Positions 35,743 through 46,708 of a stretch of 64,000 bases of DNA are shown here, one piece after another (position 1 is the stretch's first letter; each line of letters starts with the position of its first letter). The translations under genes were made by a program, and so were the position numbers. The DNA is taken from assembly GCA_000004985.1 (NCBI GenBank), contig GG738878.1; one strand, 5' to 3'. Under the pieces are notes generated by a model. It was given only the letters and a program-made list of their open reading frames with translations. It made no database searches and was not told where the DNA came from. This stretch comes from Naegleria gruberi (lineage: Eukaryota).

Positions 35743-38700
35743 ATGTCAGCACTCAAAGCGGTGATTTTGTTGCTTTGTATTAGTGTATTTGCATCCTGTA
35801 CTAATGCATGGGATGAGTTGGAGACTGCTACTACGTATTTTGCTTCTAGAAAGCCATTTCACATGAAACGCCAAATGTCAGACCAACAATTTTTCATCAG
35901 AGCCAAGGAAAGAATTAAATCTCATACCAAAATGACAAGTAAAAGACTCATAGGACCTGATGGCTCATTGTCCAATAAGGATAACAAACAATTCTTTGCC
36001 TATGACGCTACATTGACTTTTGACACTGTCAATTTAGACATGCATCCTGACGTGTTAGATATTGGATGTTCCAAAGACAGACTTTACTTGAAAGTGAGAA
36101 AGACCAGACATACCAATACTCATATCAAGATTGGTTCATTATTAGTTTCAAGTATGGACGATTTTGAATGTGAAATTGGTCAACCAACTGATGAACCAGT
36201 TTTGTACAGATTGGCAGAAAATATTCATGAAGTGAAAACTGAAAATGGAGAAATTGTCTATGTGGTAGATACTAAAACAATTGAATTTAATCAAGTTTTC
36301 ACACACATCAAACTTCAAACTCATAATCCAAGTGTCAAACAACCTGAATCGAGCTCTGTAACTCAAACAACGCCAAACAAACGTTGGAGTGTCAATAGAT
36401 CTTTTGATATTGTCAATTTTAATTGGGATAGAGATAGAAAAACTGCCAGAAATCCATCCATTGAAAATCAAGAAGGAAATTTCAAATATGTCTGCAGTAA
36501 TTGTTATTTCTACAGTACAGTTCGGTTTACAATGGAAATTAACTTTAGATGGTGTAAACCAAATAGAGCTGCTGCATCAGTTCACTTTGACAATGCATTG
36601 AATGCTAATTTGACAATGACAGCTGAATTTGAAAAGACAAAAGACTTTACAATTTTGAAAAAGAAGAAAATTACTAGTATCAAGTTTACAATTCTAGCAA
36701 TTCCAGTTGTTGTAAATGTAAATTTTGCATTGGAAGGTCAATTACAAGTTCAAGCAAAAATTCAATTTAATGTTGCCGCTTCCTTTTCAAGAGAAGGTCA
36801 ATTTGGATTCAATTATGATAAGAGGAGAGGACATTTCAATTGGATTAAATCATTCAAGGGTCAAGATTTGAAATATAGCTTTAAATTACAAGAAGTTAGT
36901 TTAGAAATTAAGCTTTATTTAATTCCTGTTTTGGGAATTGACGTTTATGGATTATTGGTTTTGGATATGAAATTTAAACCATGGATCAAAGTTGGCGGCA
37001 AGTATTTGAATCCAGCAGATGATGGATGCAAGTTATCTTATGAAAGTTCTTGGGGAATGGATGGTAGTTTCCACGTTGGAAGAATGAAACTAAAGAAGTG
37101 GACTATTTTCGATGGTCGTGATCATGATTGGACATTTATTAATGAAAGAAAAATCAAATCATTATCTGGTTGTTGGATTAAGGAGCCAACTCAACCTGCT
37201 CCTCCAACAGATGATGGTCAATCAGAGGATAGCTCAACATCCACGAGATCAATCAAGGCAATTCAATCAAGCACTAATTCAACATATTACAAACAAGTGG
37301 TTTCATGTTGTGATGATATGAAAATGTTGAATATTTCACAGAATACTACTTTGGTTCAGTACGAATTTCAACTTGATGACAATGTTCTTGACTATGGACA
37401 ATATTTGGTTTTTAATTTGACATACGACAACGTTGCTACAGTTCAATATGGCAGTGTATTGACCTATCCAGTTGACAAGAAGGTCTATGTCCCATTGTAT
37501 GAACTATTTAATACTCAAAATACCTCTTCAATCTTTGTTAGATTCACCAAAGAATTATCTGAACCCGTATTTATAGATTATTATTTGGAAAGGTCTGTTT
37601 TAGACATTGGAAAGACTATTAAAATGAAAAGAGGATTCATCGAAATTCAAGAACAAGAGATTCATCCTGATTACCTTTCATTCGCAGTTTCTGAAGGTTG
37701 CCAACTTAAGTTTGCAAACTCTACTTCCATTAGAGAAGATTCCTTAATAGATGTCACCACTCAAAACTATCCAATCAGATTGGAATTTATTGGAGAAGGA
37801 ACAGTTAATATCTATCCTATTTACAACTACTTAAGTGGAAATGACCTTTCCTTACTACTTGATACACCAATCAAATTTGGATTGAAATATTCTAGAAAAC
37901 TAATTGATGGTATGAAATTATCCCACTTACACGTTTCATCTAACAATGAGGGTGTTGAGGAGAATACTAATTTAGATGTAAACATTAGAATGAGTCATGG
38001 TCAATTATTCAGCATTGATAATTTTGGAGAATTGAGTCAACTGACTGCTACTTTTACTTTGGATGAAAGCATTTCTTCAGAAACTAACTATTTCTATTTT
38101 GATGTTAGTGGCAATTTTGGTCCTATGTATTTAGGTCTTGAACTAGTAGATGTTTATGATATAACTCCTTCAAGTACGAATCTATTCACTTTGAAATACT
38201 CAACCAGCTCACCATTTGTTGCATTATTGAATTTCACACAACTATTATCCAATTCGTCTGGCATTTCAATCAAAACAGACGGAATTTCAGATCTCTTCAT
38301 CGATGAATCAATTCCAACCAATTTCAAAAAGGAAAATTCAATGTGGATGAGTGGAAGTGATAGCTCTGAAGTTTTTGGATTTTCAGAATATTCCAATGAC
38401 GAACTAGTTGATATTGGATCTATTTATTTGAGAATAGAGCCTGTTGTACAATCAATCCAAACCAGAACTATACAAGAAATGTCTGGTCAATTGAATATTC
38501 AATCCTTAAAGAATGAAAACATTACAGTGAAATTTTCGTTCCGAGCCAACAGCAAGTCAGCACCTTCAGAAAGCATCAATCTCTCTGATTTGGTGAATGG
38601 AAATGTCAGTTTGATAATTAGCATCCTAGACGATCAATATTCCTTCGACAATTCAAAGATTGAAAGTGGCGACACTATAGTTAACTTTCTTTCTTCAATG

Positions 38701-38985
38701 ACATCCTCATCTATTACTTCCAGATGGGATGATACAATCATTCCAGTCATTGCCTATGCAATCAACGTAGAAGGTTTGGAATTGGAATTGGAAAATCCTC
38801 AAACTCTAGTATTGACCATTCCAAAAATTCCTCCATTCGAAAGTATGGACGAAACGATTACTCTTGGAGCTCTAGACGATGGTATCTTCCTACCAACACC
38901 AAGAGCAGTTAAAGCAATTGGTTCCATCAAACTTGTGAATAATGTCCTCACCAATGGCTACATTGGCACAATTTCTGAGCAATAA
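35743..38985 (+). CDS. Large secreted protein of unknown function (1080 aa), probably beta-rich
   Basis: Signal peptide MSALKAVILLLCISVFASCTNA. Long intron-free ORF with several Cys pairs and N-glycosylation sequons. No recognisable domain. The last 38 nt overlap the 3' end of the convergent gene on the minus strand. Confidence 0.55.
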   Translation: MSALKAVILLLCISVFASCTNAWDELETATTYFASRKPFHMKRQMSDQQFFIRAKERIKSHTKMTSKRLIGPDGSLSNKDNKQFFAYDATLTFDTVNLDMHPDVLDIGCSKDRLYLKVRKTRHTNTHIKIGSLLVSSMDDFECEIGQPTDEPVLYRLAENIHEVKTENGEIVYVVDTKTIEFNQVFTHIKLQTHNPSVKQPESSSVTQTTPNKRWSVNRSFDIVNFNWDRDRKTARNPSIENQEGNFKYVCSNCYFYSTVRFTMEINFRWCKPNRAAASVHFDNALNANLTMTAEFEKTKDFTILKKKKITSIKFTILAIPVVVNVNFALEGQLQVQAKIQFNVAASFSREGQFGFNYDKRRGHFNWIKSFKGQDLKYSFKLQEVSLEIKLYLIPVLGIDVYGLLVLDMKFKPWIKVGGKYLNPADDGCKLSYESSWGMDGSFHVGRMKLKKWTIFDGRDHDWTFINERKIKSLSGCWIKEPTQPAPPTDDGQSEDSSTSTRSIKAIQSSTNSTYYKQVVSCCDDMKMLNISQNTTLVQYEFQLDDNVLDYGQYLVFNLTYDNVATVQYGSVLTYPVDKKVYVPLYELFNTQNTSSIFVRFTKELSEPVFIDYYLERSVLDIGKTIKMKRGFIEIQEQEIHPDYLSFAVSEGCQLKFANSTSIREDSLIDVTTQNYPIRLEFIGEGTVNIYPIYNYLSGNDLSLLLDTPIKFGLKYSRKLIDGMKLSHLHVSSNNEGVEENTNLDVNIRMSHGQLFSIDNFGELSQLTATFTLDESISSETNYFYFDVSGNFGPMYLGLELVDVYDITPSSTNLFTLKYSTSSPFVALLNFTQLLSNSSGISIKTDGISDLFIDESIPTNFKKENSMWMSGSDSSEVFGFSEYSNDELVDIGSIYLRIEPVVQSIQTRTIQEMSGQLNIQSLKNENITVKFSFRANSKSAPSESINLSDLVNGNVSLIISILDDQYSFDNSKIESGDTIVNFLSSMTSSSITSRWDDTIIPVIAYAINVEGLELELENPQTLVLTIPKIPPFESMDETITLGALDDGIFLPTPRAVKAIGSIKLVNNVLTNGYIGTISEQ

Positions 38986-39610
38986 AGTGTGGAGAAGAAC
39001 GGTGAATAACTTTCCATTCAATTCCATTCCATTTCGAAAGTAATTTAAACATCATGCTGGAGAAAGAGGATGGACTTTTAAGAATTTGAAGTTTTTTCAA
39101 TTTTGGTGGTTTAAACTGTTGCAATAACTCAATATCTTTGTAAGATGAAAATGCACATTCCAATTCAATCAAATTCTCATTTTTACCCAATTCTTCAAAA
39201 AATTCTTTTGGAAATTCTTTCTTTATACAATTAATACTTAAATATTCCAAATTTCTCAGTACATCCAATTTAATAAGATCCATCAATTGCTCCTTTCCAC
39301 TGATTTCCACTGATAATCTCCTCAAATGTTTTAAATGTTTAAGCTTTTCCAAATTTTTGGAGATACCTGAGCATGTAAATAGCGATTCCAAATTATTCAA
39401 ACAATCATTAGAAAACATATAAAAATCTATATCTCCTAGGACTCTTATACGTAAATGCTTCAAATTTTTAAATAAGCTCAAATTACTCAAACTAAATGCT
39501 AAATCTTTGGTTACATATACACTAAATACTAATGTTTCTAAATTCCTCAATGTATTATTAATGAAAAATTTTTCAGTGCCCCTTTTAAATACTCTCGAAA
39601 TTATTTGCAA
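38948..39610 (-). CDS. LRR-like C-terminal ORF, probably the continuation of the 39616..40911 F-box gene after a frame change
   Basis: It starts 5 nt after the stop of the upstream ORF, in the -1 frame, with TTG as the listed start. The content is LRR-like (LKHLRIRVLGDIDF..LEKLKHLKHLRRLSVEIS..LRNLEYLSINC). No GT-AG intron fits, so this is a frameshift, a sequencing error or a pseudogene. Confidence 0.4.
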   Translation of the reverse strand: MQIISRVFKRGTEKFFINNTLRNLETLVFSVYVTKDLAFSLSNLSLFKNLKHLRIRVLGDIDFYMFSNDCLNNLESLFTCSGISKNLEKLKHLKHLRRLSVEISGKEQLMDLIKLDVLRNLEYLSINCIKKEFPKEFFEELGKNENLIELECAFSSYKDIELLQQFKPPKLKKLQILKSPSSFSSMMFKLLSKWNGIEWKVIHRSSPHFIAQKLCQCSHW

Positions 39611-39615
39611 TATTT

Positions 39616-40911
39616 TCAGATTTGAAAAGTTATATTTCCATGCATGATTAAGATCAAGACAATAACTGTCTTGATCAATTTTTTTTTGAATAAGTATTTT
39701 AAATTTAGAATCATATCAGTGTCAGCAACTTCATCATCTTGCTCGCTTGCATCTATCATGTATGCTCTTAAAATTTCTAATGTTTTAATATTATTAAGAA
39801 TCGTTATTAGTTGGCTTTCACCATCGAGATGTATCTCCAAAATTGAGAGGAGTTTCAAATTTAAAATTGGAGAAATATTGCTAAATATATCATCAATTCT
39901 CAATATTCTAAGGCAGTCAGTATAATTATTGATAATTAGTGATAGATTTTTCATATTATCATACACACCCATTTGTATATCTAAAATTTTCAAATTATAT
40001 AAATTTCTGTCTTTTAATTCTATTTTGTTAGAACTATTTTTAATTTTTATAGATTGTATAGTAGGTTTCTTGAAATGGAATGTGAAAGTTTTATCATTTT
40101 CCTCAAATAACACCCCAATGATAAGGTGTTTGATGTTTACACATTTGAGAATTAATTTTAATAGAGAATCGGGTTCATATTGAGAATGTATTTCCAAATT
40201 TTCTATTTGAATTAAATCACAATTAGGTGTTATAGTAGATTTTCCTATCAATAAATTGTTAACAGTATTAATAACATTCCTAAATTGTTTTGAAACTGTC
40301 AAGTATTTAAAAATCTCAAAATCATAATTTAAATATGCAAATACTCTGCGTAATGCATCATCACAAAATAATTCCGAACATGTTTTGATTTGTTTGGTTT
40401 TCAACTCAAGTTTATCGTGATCAACACCTAGATTACTAATTTCCTCAAATTTACGTTTGTTCTTTTTTTCATCAGTGCTACTTCCACCCGATTTTAATTT
40501 ACACAATTCAATTTCCAATTTTAATTCTTCCTGTCTTGCTTTTGATTGTATTGCTTTGGCTTCTTCTTGTTTCAATTTTAATTCTTCTTGAGTGAATTGT
40601 AATTTTAATTCTTCTTGTCTTAATTTCATCTTCCACAATTCAAATATTTGTTCCGAAGAGAGTCCAAGCCTTTGACATTGTTCAATGAAATCATCAGAGT
40701 TCGCACCGTTCAGCTGCGCCACAGCATTTTGTTGCAACATTTTTTTAAGCTCGCTTTCCATTAATCTTTGGATGATAAATTGTAACAAGTTTATGATGCT
40801 AATTGTTAAACAACCATTCATGATATTGCCAAATCTAGTCATTTGATTATAATACTCACAATATTTAACATATGTACCCTGACACTCAATTGGGTAATTG
40901 TTTTCCATCAT
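39616..40911 (-). CDS. F-box / coiled-coil / LRR-like protein, N-terminal ORF
   Basis: F-box-like motif CSELFCDDALRRVFAYLNYDFEIFKYLTVSKQFRNVIN after a coiled-coil (ELKLKQEEAKAIQSKARQEELKLEIEL). It is followed by irregular LRR-like units. Real ATG at 40911. Confidence 0.55.
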   Translation of the reverse strand: MMENNYPIECQGTYVKYCEYYNQMTRFGNIMNGCLTISIINLLQFIIQRLMESELKKMLQQNAVAQLNGANSDDFIEQCQRLGLSSEQIFELWKMKLRQEELKLQFTQEELKLKQEEAKAIQSKARQEELKLEIELCKLKSGGSSTDEKKNKRKFEEISNLGVDHDKLELKTKQIKTCSELFCDDALRRVFAYLNYDFEIFKYLTVSKQFRNVINTVNNLLIGKSTITPNCDLIQIENLEIHSQYEPDSLLKLILKCVNIKHLIIGVLFEENDKTFTFHFKKPTIQSIKIKNSSNKIELKDRNLYNLKILDIQMGVYDNMKNLSLIINNYTDCLRILRIDDIFSNISPILNLKLLSILEIHLDGESQLITILNNIKTLEILRAYMIDASEQDDEVADTDMILNLKYLFKKKLIKTVIVLILIMHGNITFQI

Positions 40912-41236
40912 TCTAAAAAGGAATTGACAATATTAAATTACATAATACTACCCAAATAAGAAATATGATTACAATCCATGTGATTAAATATCTTTCATTG
41001 TAAAAGATATTTAATATTATTAGCCATTACATAACATTGTATTAAAGATTGTGTTGAACAATTCATTTCACATGTGAAAGTTGACTATTTCTTTGATTAC
41101 CCTAACGGTTATTTGAAATTGTTCATGTTTTTCCTTTTGGTGCCCAGTAATGCACAACGAACTGCTTATGAGACCCGTTATGACATGAGCGTTTGCTGGC
41201 AGACAAGTGACAGGAACAAAAAATTTAAATAAAAAA

Positions 41237-44200
41237 ATGTCAGAAACAAAGAAGCCATCGTCATCTACATCTCCATCTACTGGTACGGCAAAACCAGTCA
41301 AAGGAGTACAAAAATTGGCAGGTGACATTGGTAAGAAATATAAATTACTTGTCCAAATTATGACATCCGATCCAAGATATGCCAAAGCACTAGCAGATGT
41401 TGTTCCACCTGCACAACATGAAAAACTTGCCGATTCATTAATTTCACTTTCCTATGAAATTGGAGCATCACTTGCCATTATTAAATCTTTAATTGGTTTA
41501 GAATTTGATAGAAAACAATCTCATCCTAGTACCATTCTCAGAGTTAATTCTATCGTTTCTAAAATGATGGGTAAATATACTAAAAGAGTTGGTACTCAAT
41601 ATTTAAAATTGTTATTGAGCAAGGTTGTGAATGAAGTTGTTGAACAGGCAGAAACTTTGGATTTGGAAGTTGATCCAGAGAAAGTTCAAGGAGAAAACAA
41701 ACAAGAGATTATTGATCGTCGTCTTCAACAAATTGAAGAAGTTTGTCAACGTTTTCTCGATCGTATTACTTCTGAATCAATGATTGAAGAAATGCCACGT
41801 GAATTGAGAGCTGTTTGCTATTTTTTGAAACAATATGGTGAATATTACAAGTTTGATATTGAAAAGATGATTTTACCATTGATTTCTGGTTTTGTTTGTT
41901 TACGTTATATTTGTCCTGTTATTGCCATGCCTCAAAATGCTGATATTATTAAAATGGATGATTGGAAGAAGGGATGTGTCAGACAAAATTTAACACAAAT
42001 TGCAAAAGTGTAAGTTTTTATTAATATTTTATAATATTTATTATTAATATTTTATTTAATAATTGATAATATTTGATAATATTGTCTTTTATTTGATTGT
42101 ATTTGATAATAATTGATGGGTATTTTAAAATAACTGTTCATATTTTCAATGAATGTCATTGTAAATTGACAATTCTTGATGTGTTTTACAAAAATAGAAT
42201 TCAAAAATTGGCCAATGGTGAATTGTTTGATACAGCAACACCTTCACTCATGCCATTGAATGGTTGGATTCAAAAGAATCAAGAAGGTATTTTCAAATAT
42301 ATGGCTCAACTTCCAGTTGATCCAAAACAACAAGAAGGTTTGAATCCATTCGGTGATTTGCAACGTTCCATTACATTTGAAGATATTCACTACAAATCAT
42401 TTGATATGGATGATTTATTGTTCCTTCACACTTTAATTTATGATTATGGTTATGAGTTAATTGTTTCATTGCAAAATGAAGTTATCATGACACATGACAA
42501 GAGACCAGTTAGTATTGTGAGTACAGAAACTGACTTTTTATCACTTGTTCAAGATTTGGGACCTCCACCAGAAAAAGATAGAAAACTTCCACTTCCTGAA
42601 AAGAAACAAGAACCACCAAGAAAGGGCTCTGTTAAACCAAGTGATAAGAAAGACGAAACTGCACAACCTCAAAACAAACTCCAAAGAGAAACACTTGTTG
42701 GTAAGACATATGATCAAATTCAAGAAAAGGTTTTGGAACGTTCAATGGACAATTTGATGAAGAATAGTGAAAAGTTTGACTTGTCTGAGCTTGATAGAAC
42801 TAGATTTTTATATGTTGGTAAGCCAACTCGTCAAAATTTACCTGTTGTGTACTTGATTTTGCATCGTTTAAAGCAAGAATTTTTGAATCACAATGACAAG
42901 TTAATGATTTACATTTACAAAACTTTGGGTGCATTGTTTAATCAAAAGTATTGCTTGATTATTGATTTGAGTTGGGCTGATATGGCTGATGAATATCAAG
43001 CTTTATTATACAGAGCTGTTGTTGCCTTTGCTAGATTAATGAAGATTGAACATTTGGCCAATTGTCAACAAATTTATATTTTGCATCCAAATTTCAAGAC
43101 CAAGACAGCTGTTGATGATATTTTCAATATTATTCCAAATGAAACTAGACAAAGATTAATCAAGGTCAAGTATGATTGGACCTCTTTGAGTGATATCATT
43201 GAACCAATCAAGATTTGGATTCCATTCGTTTCTAAAAAGTTTATTCCAACCACTTACAATCTCATGTTAATGAAGGAAAAGGGTGACAGTGGTAATGAAC
43301 GTTTAATGAAGATTACCAACGATTCACTTCTCGTTTTGGACTCTAAATTGGGAACTGTTCTCGATGAAATTCCATTCACAACCATTGTTGACATTAGAAT
43401 TAAGAAGAATTGTAATGAATTCTTGATCAAACACAAGACTGAAACAGAACACATGTTAAAGGAAAGAGGTGGTGATCTTGGATACATTTCCAAGAATATT
43501 GCAACTGCCAATCAAACAGAAGTTGTCAAGAGATTCAATTGTGTCTCTGATCAACAAAGAGATAACCTTGTTGAAACCATTGCTGATGTTGGTGTAAGAT
43601 GTACTTCATTGGAAAAGAAACAAACTTTCATTGTTGAAAAGGATACTAAATCTGGAAAGAGACAAAAGAGAATTCTCAAATTTGCCTATGACTCTGTACT
43701 CGTCTTTAAGGAAGGTGTTATTAAGAGAGAAATTCCATTCTCCACACTCCAATCCTTCTATATTGATAAGGAAGAAAAGAGTAGAATGTTCATTAACTTT
43801 ATGTTACTAGGAAGAAAGAAGGCATACGTTGTCTATCATGAAAATGCAACAGCTCTTCGTGATAGCTTGTTGGACACTGTTGTTAGATTCAAGTTTAATG
43901 TTGATCTTGAAAAGGAACTTTTCATTAGAAAGGATTTGGATGCAGTTGTTGATCGTTTCTTCTCTGCTGCCAAGGACAAGACTCTCACTGATGAATCTGG
44001 TTTAACCTCTGACATCAAACAAATCGTCAATATTCACAATGCTTCTGAAGATATTAAGAAATTATTCTACAAATTCAATCCTCAGAATGATAAGCGTGCT
44101 CCACTAAGTGTCGATAAGATGAGAATTATTGCTACAAGTCTCAATGTTGATTTTTCTGAAGAACATAGCAGACATTTGGTTAGCATTTTGGATGAAAAGA

Positions 44201-44343
44201 GTGTTGGTTATGTGGTTTTGGATGATATTGTAAGGAATTACATCCTCAACAAGAGAATGAAGGGTATGATTCAAAAGAGAAAGGATGCACTTGTTAAGAG
44301 AAATGAAATACTTCAAAAGCAAGGATCCTCTTCATCTAAGTAA
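41237..44343 (+). CDS. Neurofibromin-like RasGAP with C-terminal Sec14-PH module (about 970 aa), two exons about 41237..42010 and 42198..44343
   Basis: Exon 1 carries a RasGAP catalytic domain collinear with the NF1 GRD. ..ALADVVPPAQHEKLADSL.. aligns with ALANVVPCSQWDELARVL. STILRVNSIVSKMM (arginine finger) aligns with TLFRGNSLASKMM. LEVDPEKV aligns with FEVDP. PRELRAVCYFL aligns with PPQLRSVCHCL. GFVCLRYICPVIAMP aligns with FLRFINPAIVSP. Exon 1 ends ..QIAK-GT|GTAAGT. An AT-rich intron of about 187 nt ends AAAATAG. Exon 2 begins V-IQKLANGELF.., which aligns with the NF1 ..ILQSIANHVLF.. region. It continues through a Sec14-like region (..PVVYLILHRLKQEF..IYIYKTLGALFNQKYCLIIDLSWADM..). The listed 41207 start is GTG, so the first ATG at 41237 is used. 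Confidence 0.7.
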
Positions 44344-44396: not shown

Positions 44397-45257
44397 TTAA
44401 ATATTTATTGTTGCCTTCTTCCATTTCATCTTCTTATTATAAAGATGATTATTAATTTCTTCCTGGAGAGAAATTTTATCAGGGCCTTCATATCGTCTAT
44501 TGATATCCTCCTTAACCTTGATAAGCATGTCTCTGTCTTTGAGCTCGTTGACAATGCATTGAATTGCAATGTCATAAATTCTATATTCATTGGCAATCTC
44601 TGCCTTGAGTTCCATTTCAGTTTTCTGGAAGGAAAATGATTGAAGTAAATCTCTAATCATTGGTATTGGAGCTCTGAATAACTTCAATACTTGCATAACA
44701 TTGTAAATATTGAGAATTGAGTTTGAATCAGCTCTGTTTGGTTTTCCTGTTAGCAATTTCATAAATCCACTATTTCCCTTTTGCATTTTCATATCGTAGG
44801 CAGAACAATAACAAAGGCCATCCTTTTGTGCCTTTGAATAGGCAATCATTACCCCCTTCCAATCACCAATTCTACTTCTTGCAACAATGGCATCATAAAA
44901 AAATCTATGTTGTGAGAGGTCAAAAAATTTGGCCAATGTTCTAGGACAAGCAATTTGATCATCTGGAGCAGCATTGTGATAGAATAGGCAGTATTTCATA
45001 GTCTCAGATAAAGTACTTCCATAAATTGGGAACTTTTTGTACTGTTTGAATATTGGATGTTTTCCTGAAAGAGCAATTGAATTATCTTGTTCATCAATTT
45101 TAAGTTGTTTTGCTGTTAAATGAATTAAATTGGCAGTGGCAATACTGAGCTCTTCTGCACAATCTAGAGAATATTTGTTAGATTTAAACCCAACTGGATT
45201 ATCAATAGCTTGTGCATTCTTTTGAATAAAAGAAAGACAATGTTCCAATGAATCCAT
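44397..45257 (-). CDS. Hypothetical protein (286 aa)
   Basis: Intact ORF with a real ATG. No recognisable motif. Confidence 0.45.
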   Translation of the reverse strand: MDSLEHCLSFIQKNAQAIDNPVGFKSNKYSLDCAEELSIATANLIHLTAKQLKIDEQDNSIALSGKHPIFKQYKKFPIYGSTLSETMKYCLFYHNAAPDDQIACPRTLAKFFDLSQHRFFYDAIVARSRIGDWKGVMIAYSKAQKDGLCYCSAYDMKMQKGNSGFMKLLTGKPNRADSNSILNIYNVMQVLKLFRAPIPMIRDLLQSFSFQKTEMELKAEIANEYRIYDIAIQCIVNELKDRDMLIKVKEDINRRYEGPDKISLQEEINNHLYNKKMKWKKATINI

Positions 45258-45298: not shown

Positions 45299-46708
45299 TT
45301 ATTTGATAATACTTACATCAGTAATTGTGATTGCCATCTTGTATTGAAGCAAAGCTTCATCTCTAATCATGTTATTGAATTTGTAAACCCTTTGAAGAGT
45401 TTTGTTGTCTCCAAGTTTCTTGAGGAATGAAATATAGGTCAAGACGAAAAATCCTGTCTCCCTATCAGCTTCAATTAAAACCTCCATGAAAGATCTAAAT
45501 GCCAGAGATTGTTCAATTGAAATTATTACTGGAATAATGACATCATAATTTCTTCCACAACTCTTCAAAAGAGCTACCTTTTGCTTTGACTCTCTGAGTC
45601 TTCTTAAATTACACCAGGCATCCAATTCTCTTTCTTGATTGGAAAATTGATCATTAGATCTATATTTATATTCATAATCCTCATCCAATGACTCGTTAAT
45701 TAATTCCTCCTCCTCATCAATTACCTCTTTATAAACTGGTGGCTTGGTAACTTTTCTTTTCTTTACCTTATCCAAGACAACCTTATTCAATTCATTAGAT
45801 TCAAGTCCTTCTCTAATTAAATCTCCCAAAGTTTTCACAACAACCTTCTCCTCCTCAAAGTAATCATCATATTTAGAGGAAGCGCTTTTTGGAGTTTCAC
45901 TAACAAAATCCTCCAATGAATTATTGGAATGTTCCAATTCCTTTCTGAGCTTGTGATTTTCCTCTTCCAATTTGAATAATTGTTTCTTTAATTGTTCGAA
46001 ATGTTCAAATGAAAATTCAAATTCCCTTGTTTGTCTCTTTTCTGATTTTTCAGTAGATTTAACAACCATTGGAGTTTCACTTTTTTCATTAACTACTACT
46101 GCTTTTGGAGAAATATTTAAAGATCCACTTGAAGGCACACGTGTTGGCAGAGGTTTAGTACTACCCACTGATGCTTCATTCATTGGTTGTTGTTGTTGTT
46201 GTTGATGTGAATTAGGAGGAGGTGTAGTTGATGTTTTTGATGAAGGAGGAACTGTTGGTAAATTCTTCTTATTATTTGCTTGAGGTGTCATTGGTAAACT
46301 CTTTGAAGGAATTGGAGGCTGTGTTGGAAGATTATTGATGAATGAATCGACATCGAATGGTTCAGCAGAGGCCTTACTGTTATTATTATGTTGTTGTTGT
46401 TGTTGATTATTTGTAATTATATTATTGGATGAAGAATTTTGTTTGTTACTAGTCGATGTAGTGGTGGTGAGGGAAGAAGGAAGAGGAGGCAATGAAGATA
46501 ATCGTGATGATGAACTATCAGGAGTTTCAATATGATCGTACAAATCTTCGGAATTAATAGAGAAGAAATTGGAGGCTGTTTCTGTAGCTGTTGATGAATC
46601 TGTAGTTGCTTCTTGGGATGATTGGAATTTACCTCCAGAGAGAAGCAAGATGGGATCATCGTCCTCTACTCTCTTTTGCATTTCACGCTTCTTACTCACC
46701 CAAGACAT
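45299..46708 (-). CDS. Hypothetical protein with Ser/Thr/Gln/Asn-rich N-terminal half, a coiled-coil and a structured C-terminal domain (469 aa)
   Basis: Real ATG at 46708. poly-Q/N/S/T low complexity, then a coiled-coil (QLKKQLFKLEEENHKLRKELEH). The C-terminal 120 aa are non-repetitive. No family assigned. Confidence 0.45.
   Translation of the reverse strand: MSWVSKKREMQKRVEDDDPILLLSGGKFQSSQEATTDSSTATETASNFFSINSEDLYDHIETPDSSSSRLSSLPPLPSSLTTTTSTSNKQNSSSNNIITNNQQQQQHNNNSKASAEPFDVDSFINNLPTQPPIPSKSLPMTPQANNKKNLPTVPPSSKTSTTPPPNSHQQQQQQPMNEASVGSTKPLPTRVPSSGSLNISPKAVVVNEKSETPMVVKSTEKSEKRQTREFEFSFEHFEQLKKQLFKLEEENHKLRKELEHSNNSLEDFVSETPKSASSKYDDYFEEEKVVVKTLGDLIREGLESNELNKVVLDKVKKRKVTKPPVYKEVIDEEEELINESLDEDYEYKYRSNDQFSNQERELDAWCNLRRLRESKQKVALLKSCGRNYDVIIPVIISIEQSLAFRSFMEVLIEADRETGFFVLTYISFLKKLGDNKTLQRVYKFNNMIRDEALLQYKMAITITDVSIIK

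Follow-up and report, generated by a model that had tools for sequence, protein, structure and literature searches.

The window analysed here, a 64,000-nucleotide stretch of Naegleria gruberi contig GG738878.1, carries a two-exon gene on its plus strand whose 972-residue product begins with a GAP-related domain (GRD) of the RasGAP type and continues, after a disordered linker (residues 389-419), through a Sec14-like domain, two consecutive PH-like domains, an EF-hand-like pair and a long helix. The gene is flanked on its 5' side by an ORF on the opposite strand. The features are listed below in positions of the window; residue numbers refer to the spliced product.

39616..40911, minus strand: divergent F-box/LRR ORF, outside the RasGAP gene, starting 325 bp upstream of the RasGAP start
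41186..41188, plus strand: in-frame TGA stop, 17 codons 5' of the start codon
41237..42009, plus strand: exon 1, codons 1-257 and two bases of codon 258
41321..42564, plus strand: GRD, all-helical, residues 29-380, spanning the intron (Pfam, phmmer, AF2, Foldseek)
41540..41542, plus strand: AGA codon of R102, the predicted catalytic arginine finger, aligned with NF1 R1276
41903..41905, plus strand: CGT codon of R223, the secondary arginine in the FLR-type motif CLRYICPVIAMP, aligned with NF1 R1391
42010..42197, plus strand: intron, 188 nt, phase 2, GTAAGT...ATAG
42198..44343, plus strand: exon 2, last base of codon 258 to codon 972 and the TAA stop
42706..43242, plus strand: Sec14/CRAL-TRIO-like domain, putatively lipid-binding, residues 428-606 (Pfam, AF2, Foldseek)
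43243..43614, plus strand: PH-like domain 1, residues 607-730, counterpart of the NF1 PH-like domain (AF2, NF1-core profile, BLASTP)
43615..43932, plus strand: PH-like domain 2, residues 731-836 (AF2, Foldseek, profile search, BLASTP)
43933..44229, plus strand: EF-hand-like pair, residues 837-935, with loops that are degenerate in N. gruberi (weak Pfam, family matches, AF2)
44218..44331, plus strand: long basic C-terminal helix, residues 932-969, extending the exit helix of the second EF-hand (AF2)

Joining the two exons gives an uninterrupted ORF of 972 codons, whose translation is identical over 972/972 residues to a protein deposited for N. gruberi NEG-M as "rasGTPase-activating protein"; the locus is thus already annotated (XP_002675333.1 / EFC42589.1, UniProt D2VKF5). 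The intron has a GC content of 15%, against 34% in the exons, and contains stops in all three frames. Across the spliced junction, IAKV|IQKLANGE, the product is collinear without indels with 19/19 homologues, transcriptome-derived ones included, and likewise with the NF1 segment 'SKILQSIAN'. An earlier reading made from the sequence only (hereafter the sequence-only reading) had proposed an AT-rich intron of about 187 nt at 42011..42197; the intron and its composition stand, while its start was off by one nucleotide (42010) and its length is 188 nt.

The catalytic domain is recognised by sequence and by fold. Pfam RasGAP (PF00616) matches residues 82-264 with an E-value of 1.6e-36 (126.6 bits, the cut-off being 28.3) and is present in 19/20 family members; phmmer links the protein to the human NF1 GRD at 3e-17; the AF2 helices of the domain cover residues 29-378, and Foldseek superposes it on the NF1 GRD structure 6ob2 with a TMt of 0.84-0.87. 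The collinearity with the NF1 GRD that had been read from the letters, arginine finger and FLR motif included, holds down to single residues, R102 and R223 aligning with R1276 and R1391. The finger segment reads TILRVNSIVSK, and its TILRVNSIV core is kept in all family members covering the region, one of them having TILRANSIV. CLRYICPVIAMP is the counterpart of the FLR..PA..P-type motif, and a third residue, K257, aligns with NF1 K1423. All three, R102, R223 and K257, are conserved across the family alignment.

Downstream of the linker, the Sec14 domain is divergent and still detected by profile: CRAL_TRIO_2 matches residues 473-602 (4.4e-9, 37.2 bits against a cut-off of 23) and is found in 20/20 family members. 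The domain search that the sequence-only reading had suggested therefore returned both RasGAP and CRAL_TRIO_2 above the Pfam cut-offs and, with the PH-like fold seen by AF2 and Foldseek, bore out its call of a RasGAP-Sec14-PH gene of about 970 codons. AF2 models the Sec14-like region as an alpha/beta fold, for which Foldseek finds the NF1 Sec-PH structure 2d4q (4.6e-8), yeast Sec14p and AtSFH5. The first PH-like domain is a seven-strand sandwich with a C-terminal helix; the NF1-core profile alignment runs into it, through residue 676, and the BLASTP alignment with the NF1 of Willaertia stays collinear up to residue 717. The second PH-like domain is absent from NF1 and common to a set of compact relatives taken up below: a profile of it picks up most of those with PH domains, Acytostelium included. 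For the C-terminal tail, the top Foldseek matches are tandem-PH proteins (Spt16M, Pob3M, Rtt106, BBS5, FARP1/2 and IRS-1 PH-PTB). The AF2 pLDDT is 84.4 over the whole protein, and for its C-terminal part the value is 90.3. With the full model as query, the top matches are human NF1 GAP-SecPH at 5e-19 to 1e-18 over about 720 columns; whole-model TM-scores to NF1 are low (0.25-0.28) and the rmsd large, since the domains are oriented differently relative to one another, and E-values and aligned lengths were used as evidence instead.

What would such a protein do? It likely functions as a Ras-specific GAP. The GRD would dock on GTP-bound Ras and switch it off, R102 entering the active site to speed up GTP hydrolysis, with R223 as the predicted finger-stabilising arginine and K257 as the Ras-contact lysine. 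The Sec14-PH-PH module may bind a glycerophospholipid, membrane or partner surfaces, or both, and could thereby place or gate the GAP at the cortex. In Dictyostelium discoideum, loss of NfaA/DdNF1 prolongs Ras activation and impairs chemotaxis (PMC9630474); by analogy, the Naegleria protein would end Ras activity and confine it spatially in the dynamics of amoeba pseudopods and feeding cups. We consider it improbable that the RasGAP fold instead serves another small GTPase of the Rap/Ras-like kind or acts mainly as a scaffold in the manner of IQGAPs. The GRDs of IQGAP1/2 are indeed significant matches too, by sequence and by Foldseek, but catalytically inactive IQGAPs are known to lack the arginine finger and the FLR arginine, both of which are kept across this family. 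As for another target, substrate specificity is not readable from sequence by the methods applied here, and GAP1-family and SynGAP-family proteins show dual Ras/Rap activity (PMC12871552); the closest characterised relatives of the window protein, NF1 and NfaA, are however Ras regulators, which favours Ras as the substrate.

Where the protein belongs among RasGAPs was addressed by an exhaustive HMMER search. Its nearest relatives outside Heterolobosea are GRD-Sec14-PH-PH proteins of 750-1050 aa, several of them annotated 'Neurofibromin-A'; these compact NfaA-type relatives, from Amoebozoa, CRuMs, Metamonada and Jakobida, are closer to it than full-length NF1. A profile built from the non-heterolobosean compact members only, dictyostelid NfaA orthologues included, gives the window protein 547 bits over a single alignment (residues 33-830), versus 263 bits on the NF1-core profile. 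The link to NfaA itself comes from published nfaA knockout primers. Once translated, these give peptides with exact matches in an 891-aa D. citrinum protein (P0187), located at residues 61 and 583 as well as the C-terminal end, which identifies the dictyostelid proteins, some 890 aa long, as NfaA orthologues; the NfaA of D. discoideum is XP_645456.1. BLASTP aligns the window protein with P0187 over the GRD (7e-37) and over Sec14-PH-PH (7e-34), with 136 + 127 bits and reaching residue 830, compared with 102 bits for Willaertia NF1. In a neighbour-joining tree of the GRD, calculated without bootstrap, the clade of the window protein groups with Andalucia outside the NF1 cluster, and the compact proteins do not form one clade; the case for monophyly of the class therefore rests on the profile scores and the shared second PH-like domain. 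Taken together, the product is very probably a cytosolic GAP for Ras that belongs to the 'miniature neurofibromin' class (MNF, or NfaA-type after the Dictyostelium protein). This class was defined and named by Bloomfield et al. 2015 (eLife, PMC4374526), who listed Naegleria as having MNF; the gene, the class and its presence in Naegleria beside full-length NF1 are thus already known. At least two compact paralogues are present in Naegleria, and the MNF that Bloomfield et al. plotted for it may be this gene or the other one.

Could the protein nevertheless be the Naegleria neurofibromin orthologue, secondarily stripped of its HEAT-like arms, as the sequence-only reading implied in speaking of a minimal NF1-like protein? 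Human neurofibromin is its best solved-structure match by sequence as well as by fold, and Willaertia NF1 aligns collinearly with the protein across GRD-Sec14-PH1. Sequence search, however, joins it to NF1 over the GRD only, at the E-value given above and with no strong full-length similarity, while the compact NfaA-type profile scores twice as high and the second PH domain is common to NfaA-type proteins and not to NF1. Nowhere in the 972 aa is there NF1 homology outside GRD-Sec14-PH1, the flanks being PH2 and the EF-hand-like pair, not HEAT repeats. Moreover, the close relative Willaertia magna carries both forms: its compact orthologue, P0003, is 71% identical, and beside it stands a true NF1 of 2790 aa (P0156, KAL9648798.1), which matches human NF1 at 3.9e-216 in several stretches including the arms. 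Bloomfield et al. 2015 (PMC4374526) also report a full-length NF1 from N. gruberi (EFC40840.1), and the supplement of the same paper gives XP_002671593 as its Naegleria NF1 example. The place of the NF1 orthologue is therefore already filled, and a stripped neurofibromin becomes very hard to sustain. Judged by these sequence comparisons, the window protein is an ancient paralogue of NF1, not its orthologue or a pared-down neurofibromin, and because of this the idea that it might reveal ancestral functions of neurofibromin is weakened.

The compact 972-aa form is genuine. Exon 1 starts at the first ATG, behind an A-rich leader, and the N-terminus it encodes, MSETKKPSSSTSPS, is identical to that of XP_002675333.1 and matches the orthologues of N. 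lovaniensis and of the pathogen N. fowleri (991 aa). Throughout Heterolobosea, orthologues of 870-990 aa, some of them from transcriptomes, have the same N-terminus; the start site is shared by N. lovaniensis, N. fowleri, Willaertia, Acrasis and complete transcriptome-derived ORFs, and the C-termini likewise agree among complete transcriptome ORFs and the orthologues of four heterolobosean genera. The in-frame TGA upstream limits any unspliced N-terminal extension, and the divergent minus-strand F-box ORF just upstream excludes exons for NF1 arms there. Together with the shared N-terminus, these two features establish that the short form is real, as had been argued from the ATG at 41237, and with a GRD beginning at residue 29 they agree with the reported absence of HEAT-like arms. 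Beyond the F-box gene, the plus-strand ORF at 35743..38985 encodes a self-contained signal-peptide protein without Pfam matches, and past the RasGAP stop codon another minus-strand ORF starts after 54 bp. Exons for HEAT/ARM regions were looked for upstream and rejected, the ORFs there being the signal-peptide protein (plus strand) and the F-box/LRR gene (minus strand). A GTG start at 41207 was dismissed as irrelevant for a eukaryote, the orthologues beginning at the ATG. A gene-model artefact, with exons for NF1-like arms lying upstream or downstream, is next to inconceivable as the source of the compact size, given the stop 17 codons upstream, the minus-strand ORFs beginning 325 bp before the start and 54 bp after the stop, termini and length shared by four genera and transcriptome ORFs, and the identity of the model with the deposited protein.

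The roughly 240 residues after the first PH-like domain, overlooked in the sequence-only reading, comprise the second PH-like domain, the EF-hand-like pair and the long terminal helix. In the AF2 model, the EF-hand-like region consists of two helix-loop-helix units with short paired strands. Of the EF-hand pair profiles (PF13499/PF13833), Pfam returns EF-hand_8 only for the window protein, below threshold (E 0.036, 14.2 bits against a cut-off of 28); among its family, EF-hand_7 is found in 11/20 members, at best with 1.3e-7, and in the Andalucia godoyi homologue with 1.1e-5. A canonical EF loop is 12 residues long and takes its ligands, acidic or polar, from positions 1, 3, 5 and 12, a pattern that neither loop of the window protein follows: the first has 13 residues (N-P-Q-N-D-K-R-A-P-L-S-V-D), and the second (D-E-K-S-V-G-Y-V-V-L-D-D) has K and V where positions 3 and 5 call for such ligands. 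Owing to this degeneracy, the pair more probably has a structural or interaction role than one in canonical Ca2+ sensing. Profile and Pfam searches detected neither the EF-hand pair nor the long helix in the amoebozoan, CRuMs and metamonad members, and the profile of the terminal-helix segment matches the heterolobosean-type clade only; pair and helix may be a Discoba-specific appendage. A fold search with the tail was dominated by PH-PH proteins; its sole combination of PH and EF-hand was PLC-beta3, a weak match at rank 46.

The distribution of this appendage invites a speculation that we put forward as doubtful: a Discoba branch of MNF (Heterolobosea and Jakobida) may have fused the RasGAP-Sec14-PH-PH core to a Ca2+-sensing or dimerising EF-hand pair and helix. 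If this were true, Ras inactivation would be gated directly by Ca2+ or by oligomerisation, a regulatory logic undescribed for NF1 or NfaA, and the conserved tandem PH, as opposed to a single PH, would be a real hallmark dividing MNF from NF1.

The value of the analysis is mainly confirmatory: the domain, intron and start-codon calls made from the raw sequence were essentially correct, the Sec14 region was found by profile and HEAT/ARM regions upstream were not, whereas the notion of a minimal or reduced neurofibromin lost its support to the separate full-length NF1 in Heterolobosea and the favoured NfaA-type profile. There are two small refinements: the compact class has two PH-like domains, and those of its members that come from Discoba have gained a degenerate EF-hand pair together with a terminal helix. 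Both may be of use in studying NfaA-type RasGAPs or the Ras signalling of Naegleria species, the pathogen N. fowleri among them.

Finally, we would place the protein among the known RasGAP families. With p120GAP/RASA1, SynGAP/DAB2IP, GAP1m/CAPRI and IQGAP it has the catalytic GRD fold in common (Foldseek TMt 0.7-0.8; 1wer, 3bxj, 3fay), with weaker sequence matches (4e-13 to 2e-11); these families pair the GRD with SH2/SH3, C2, PH/BTK or CH/IQ domains and lack Sec14-PH. With neurofibromin (human NF1, yeast Ira1/2, Dictyostelium AxeB/NF1 and Willaertia NF1) it shares a homologous and collinear GRD-Sec14-PH as well as the equivalents of R1276, R1391 and K1423. NF1/Ira orthologues run to about 2100-2900 aa, and their HEAT/ARM-like arms build the NF1 dimer in published structures. 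Both arms, about 1200 residues on the N-terminal side and 500-1000 residues of HEAT/ARM type on the C-terminal side, are missing from the window protein, which instead carries a second PH-like domain and an EF-hand-like pair that NF1 does not have. The closest likeness is to the class of D. discoideum NfaA/DdNF1, the subject of Zhang et al. 2008 as cited in PMC4374526. Both are compact (about 890 aa in dictyostelids, 972 aa in Naegleria), follow the order RasGAP, Sec14/CRAL-TRIO, PH-like and second PH-like, conserve the catalytic arginines, lack the NF1 arms and coexist with a separate full-length NF1 in the same lineage. Sequence identity between the window protein and the dictyostelid NfaA-type protein is just 23-30%, and, unlike NfaA, the versions of Naegleria, other heteroloboseans and the jakobid Andalucia add the C-terminal EF-hand-like pair and long helix.

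The RasGAP gene occupies two plus-strand open reading frames joined across an intron, and its parts and neighbours, with ORF coordinates taken from the ORF listing, are as follows.

Features of the RasGAP gene and its surroundings
35743..38985, plus strand: ORF of 1080 aa with a signal-peptide-like N-terminus and many N-x-S/T sites, no Pfam match
38948..39610, minus strand: LRR ORF, 220 aa
39616..40911, minus strand: F-box ORF, 431 aa
41207..42013, plus strand: ORF, 5' part of the RasGAP gene
42010..42197, plus strand: intron of 188 nt, phase 2, GTAAGT from 42010, acceptor ATAG ending at 42197
42097..44343, plus strand: ORF, 3' part of the RasGAP gene
43615..43932, plus strand: second PH-like domain, PH2 (residues 731-836; AlphaFold2 model, Foldseek, PH2 profile)
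43933..44331, plus strand: EF-hand-like pair and long basic helix (residues 837-969; AlphaFold2 model, family Pfam matches)
44397..45257, minus strand: ORF of 286 aa downstream of the RasGAP gene
45299..46708, minus strand: ORF of 469 aa with poly-Q and low-complexity S/T/N tracts, downstream of the RasGAP gene

Once the canonical intron is spliced out, a protein of 972 aa is read from the first ATG (41237). The intron has a GC content of 15%, compared with 34% for the exons, and contains stops in all three frames. The resulting junction, …LTQIAKV|IQKLANGELF…, lies within a strongly conserved stretch that aligns without indels to 19 homologues, transcriptome-assembly ORFs among them, and is likewise collinear with the ‘SKILQSIAN’ segment of neurofibromin (NF1). 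The coordinates proposed in the sequence-only reading hold throughout, except that the intron starts at 42010, one base from the position assigned to it.

The short form of the gene is real on five counts: an in-frame TGA 17 codons 5' of the ATG, an opposite-strand neighbour upstream, another downstream, homologues with the same termini, and identity to a deposited protein. Upstream lie this stop codon and the divergent F-box and LRR ORFs, starting 325 bp from the RasGAP start; downstream, a minus-strand ORF begins 54 bp past the stop codon. Homologues of 867-991 aa from Naegleria lovaniensis (84% identity), N. fowleri, Willaertia magna (71%), Acrasis kona (50%) and other heterolobosean-type sequences share both termini, and some of them are ‘complete’ transcriptome ORFs. 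Since 972/972 residues of our model match N. gruberi NEG-M XP_002675333.1 (EFC42589.1, UniProt D2VKF5), named ‘rasGTPase-activating protein’, the gene had already been annotated with exactly this structure. As for the neighbours, the F-box and LRR ORFs share a strand with a gap of 5 nt and are probably a single F-box/LRR gene in which either the frame changes or a very short intron intervenes; the ORF at 35743..38985 probably encodes a lineage-specific secreted or surface protein, and the two downstream ORFs gave no Pfam matches at E<=0.01.

Pfam places a RasGAP domain at residues 82-264 with 126.6 bits (cut-off 28.3; E 1.6e-36) and CRAL_TRIO_2, the Sec14-like region, at 473-602 (E 4.4e-9). 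Among all PDB sequences, phmmer ranks the human NF1 GAP-related domain (GRD) first (3e-17), followed by p120GAP (4e-13) and then SynGAP and IQGAP2, and its alignment sets R102 opposite the arginine finger of NF1, R1276, R223 opposite the FLR arginine, R1391, and K257 opposite K1423. All family members spanning the region keep the TILRVNSIV finger motif, with one variant, TILRANSIV. In a confident AlphaFold2 model built from a 20-sequence alignment (mean pLDDT 84.4), an all-helical GRD (29-378) and a disordered linker (389-419) precede a Sec14 alpha/beta fold (~429-604) and two consecutive PH-like seven-strand sandwiches (611-728 and 734-834), both of which have a capping helix. Two helix-loop-helix units (~840-930) come next, and the chain ends in a long helix (932-969). 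The best Foldseek matches in the PDB are human neurofibromin (7pgr, 7r04, and 7pgq ‘GAP-SecPH region’; E 5e-19 to 1e-18 over ~720 columns), and the NF1 Sec14-PH crystal structures follow at about 5e-8. With upstream arms absent and the Sec14-like region detected by profile, the original observation of a RasGAP domain collinear with that of NF1 and followed by Sec14-PH is therefore confirmed as real and accurately described; its domain list is right for GRD-Sec14-PH and overlooked PH2 and the EF-hand-like pair.

NF1 carries one PH-like domain after Sec14. When residues 607-972 were modelled separately, with high confidence (pLDDT 90.3), and searched against the PDB, all leading matches with ~240-255 aligned columns were tandem-PH or PH-PTB proteins: Spt16 and Pob3 middle domains, Rtt106, BBS5, FARP1/2 DH-PH-PH, IRS-1 and Dok7 PH-PTB, and centaurin-alpha1. 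A PH2 profile detects most compact relatives, including dictyostelid NfaA orthologues and the homologues P0043, P0187, P0028 and P0038; it did not detect full-length NF1, though it matched compact NfaA-type proteins of Amoebozoa, CRuMs, Metamonada and others. The EF-hand-like pair is sub-threshold in the window protein (EF-hand_8, E 0.036), while EF-hand_7 is found in 11/20 family members (best 1.3e-7). Its first loop has 13 residues and its second, D-E-K-S-V-G-Y-V-V-L-D-D, has no ligand residue at position 3 or 5; the N. gruberi protein is therefore unlikely to bind Ca2+ in the canonical way. Pair and helix occur in heterolobosean members, and the jakobid Andalucia godoyi homologue P0027 shares the pair (EF-hand_7 at 1.1e-5, residues 892-954); domain profiles did not detect them in the remaining compact relatives among the best 150 of 5734 matches. 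Two further proteins, P0040 (969 aa) and P0063 (928 aa), carry the Sec14-PH-PH-EF tail without a RasGAP domain, which suggests that the tail is a mobile module; the N-terminal half of P0040 holds a canonical PH domain (Pfam, 3e-17).

Is this then a neurofibromin that lost its arms? The family profile, run exhaustively with HMMER against 1.84 billion representative proteins, gave 5734 matches, and separately built per-domain profiles sort the best 150 into three tiers. The first is a heterolobosean-type clade with all six elements (GRD, Sec14, PH1, PH2, EF and C-terminal helix); the second consists of numerous compact proteins (750-1050 aa) that have GRD-Sec14-PH1-PH2 and no detectable EF tail; lower down, proteins of 1900-3300 aa, with only GRD and Sec14 recognised, are of NF1 type. 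Compact proteins include Andalucia godoyi ‘Neurofibromin-A’, Anaeramoeba ‘neurofibromin-a’, Ancoracysta, Diphylleia, Barthelona, the amoebozoans Stygamoeba, Mastigamoeba, Mastigella and Pelomyxa, and a full dictyostelid set of 844-973 aa (Acytostelium, Heterostelium, Cavenderia, Tieghemostelium, Polysphondylium, D. purpureum, D. citrinum). Heteroloboseans evidently possess genuine full-length NF1 too, since the 2790-aa KAL9648798.1 of Willaertia magna aligns with human NF1 (3.9e-216) in several stretches, arms included.

Against a profile of 20 compact proteins, heterolobosean sequences left out, the window protein scores 547 bits in one alignment (residues 33-830) that runs through PH2, versus 263 bits, covering GRD, Sec14 and part of PH1, against a second profile, made from 18 long NF1-type proteins over their GRD-to-post-Sec14 core. 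Willaertia NF1 scores 301 and 1134 bits, respectively, of which only the 301 is informative, as the protein belongs to the NF1 training set. In BLASTP, the D. citrinum NfaA orthologue P0187 aligns in two collinear segments, GRD (30% identity, 7e-37) and Sec14-PH-PH (23% over 440 residues, 7e-34), and Willaertia NF1 in a single one (21%, 2e-25) that stops inside PH1. Neighbour joining on the GRD alone gives a crude tree in which the window clade and Andalucia fall outside the NF1 cluster and the compact proteins are not recovered as one clade. The peptides encoded by the published nfaA knockout primers (TANKTLP, IFIVHPS, EEGFL-stop) recur exactly in the 891-aa P0187, at positions 61 and 583 and at its C-terminal end; by this match, NfaA is therefore a GRD-Sec14-PH-PH protein of ~890 aa. 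By its profile scores and its PH2, the window protein is an ancient paralogue of neurofibromin, not a reduced one. At least two compact paralogues exist in Naegleria, both scoring well on the compact profile: the second, of ~917 aa (N. lovaniensis XP_044555870.1, P0049; N. fowleri XP_044567240.1, P0174), lies outside the window. It reaches 494 bits, and its Sec14 is so divergent that Pfam detects RasGAP only.

The gene is thus known: it was annotated earlier, and its class, the ‘miniature neurofibromins’ (MNF), was named, and reported in the genus Naegleria, in 2015, with D. discoideum NfaA as a member (PMC4374526). The same study found NF1 in N. gruberi (EFC40840.1; Bloomfield et al. 2015, eLife 4:e04940, PMC4374526) and proposed that MNF and NF1 may both date to the last eukaryotic common ancestor; NF1's is the sole Naegleria accession in its supplement, so that the MNF it plotted could be either compact paralogue. 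Its MNF description has a single ‘PH-like’ domain (PMC4374526), and the tandem arrangement may be a class hallmark not spelled out there. Only the conserved tandem PH and the Discoba-specific EF-hand/helix tail are mildly new.

Domain architecture, catalytic-residue conservation and class assignment are established here. GAP action on Ras and lipid-dependent positioning are predicted roles: from RasGAP/NF1 structural biology, the GRD would bind Ras-GTP with R102 supplied to the active site, and the Sec14-PH-PH module may position the protein in dependence on lipid, membrane or partner. In Dictyostelium, loss of NF1/axeB yields larger macropinosomes, and in nfaA (DdNF1) null cells Ras activation is raised and lasts longer and chemotaxis is impaired (PMC9630474, PMC4374526). 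By analogy with NfaA genetics, the window protein would limit how long and how far Ras is active at the cortex of a crawling, phagocytosing amoeba.
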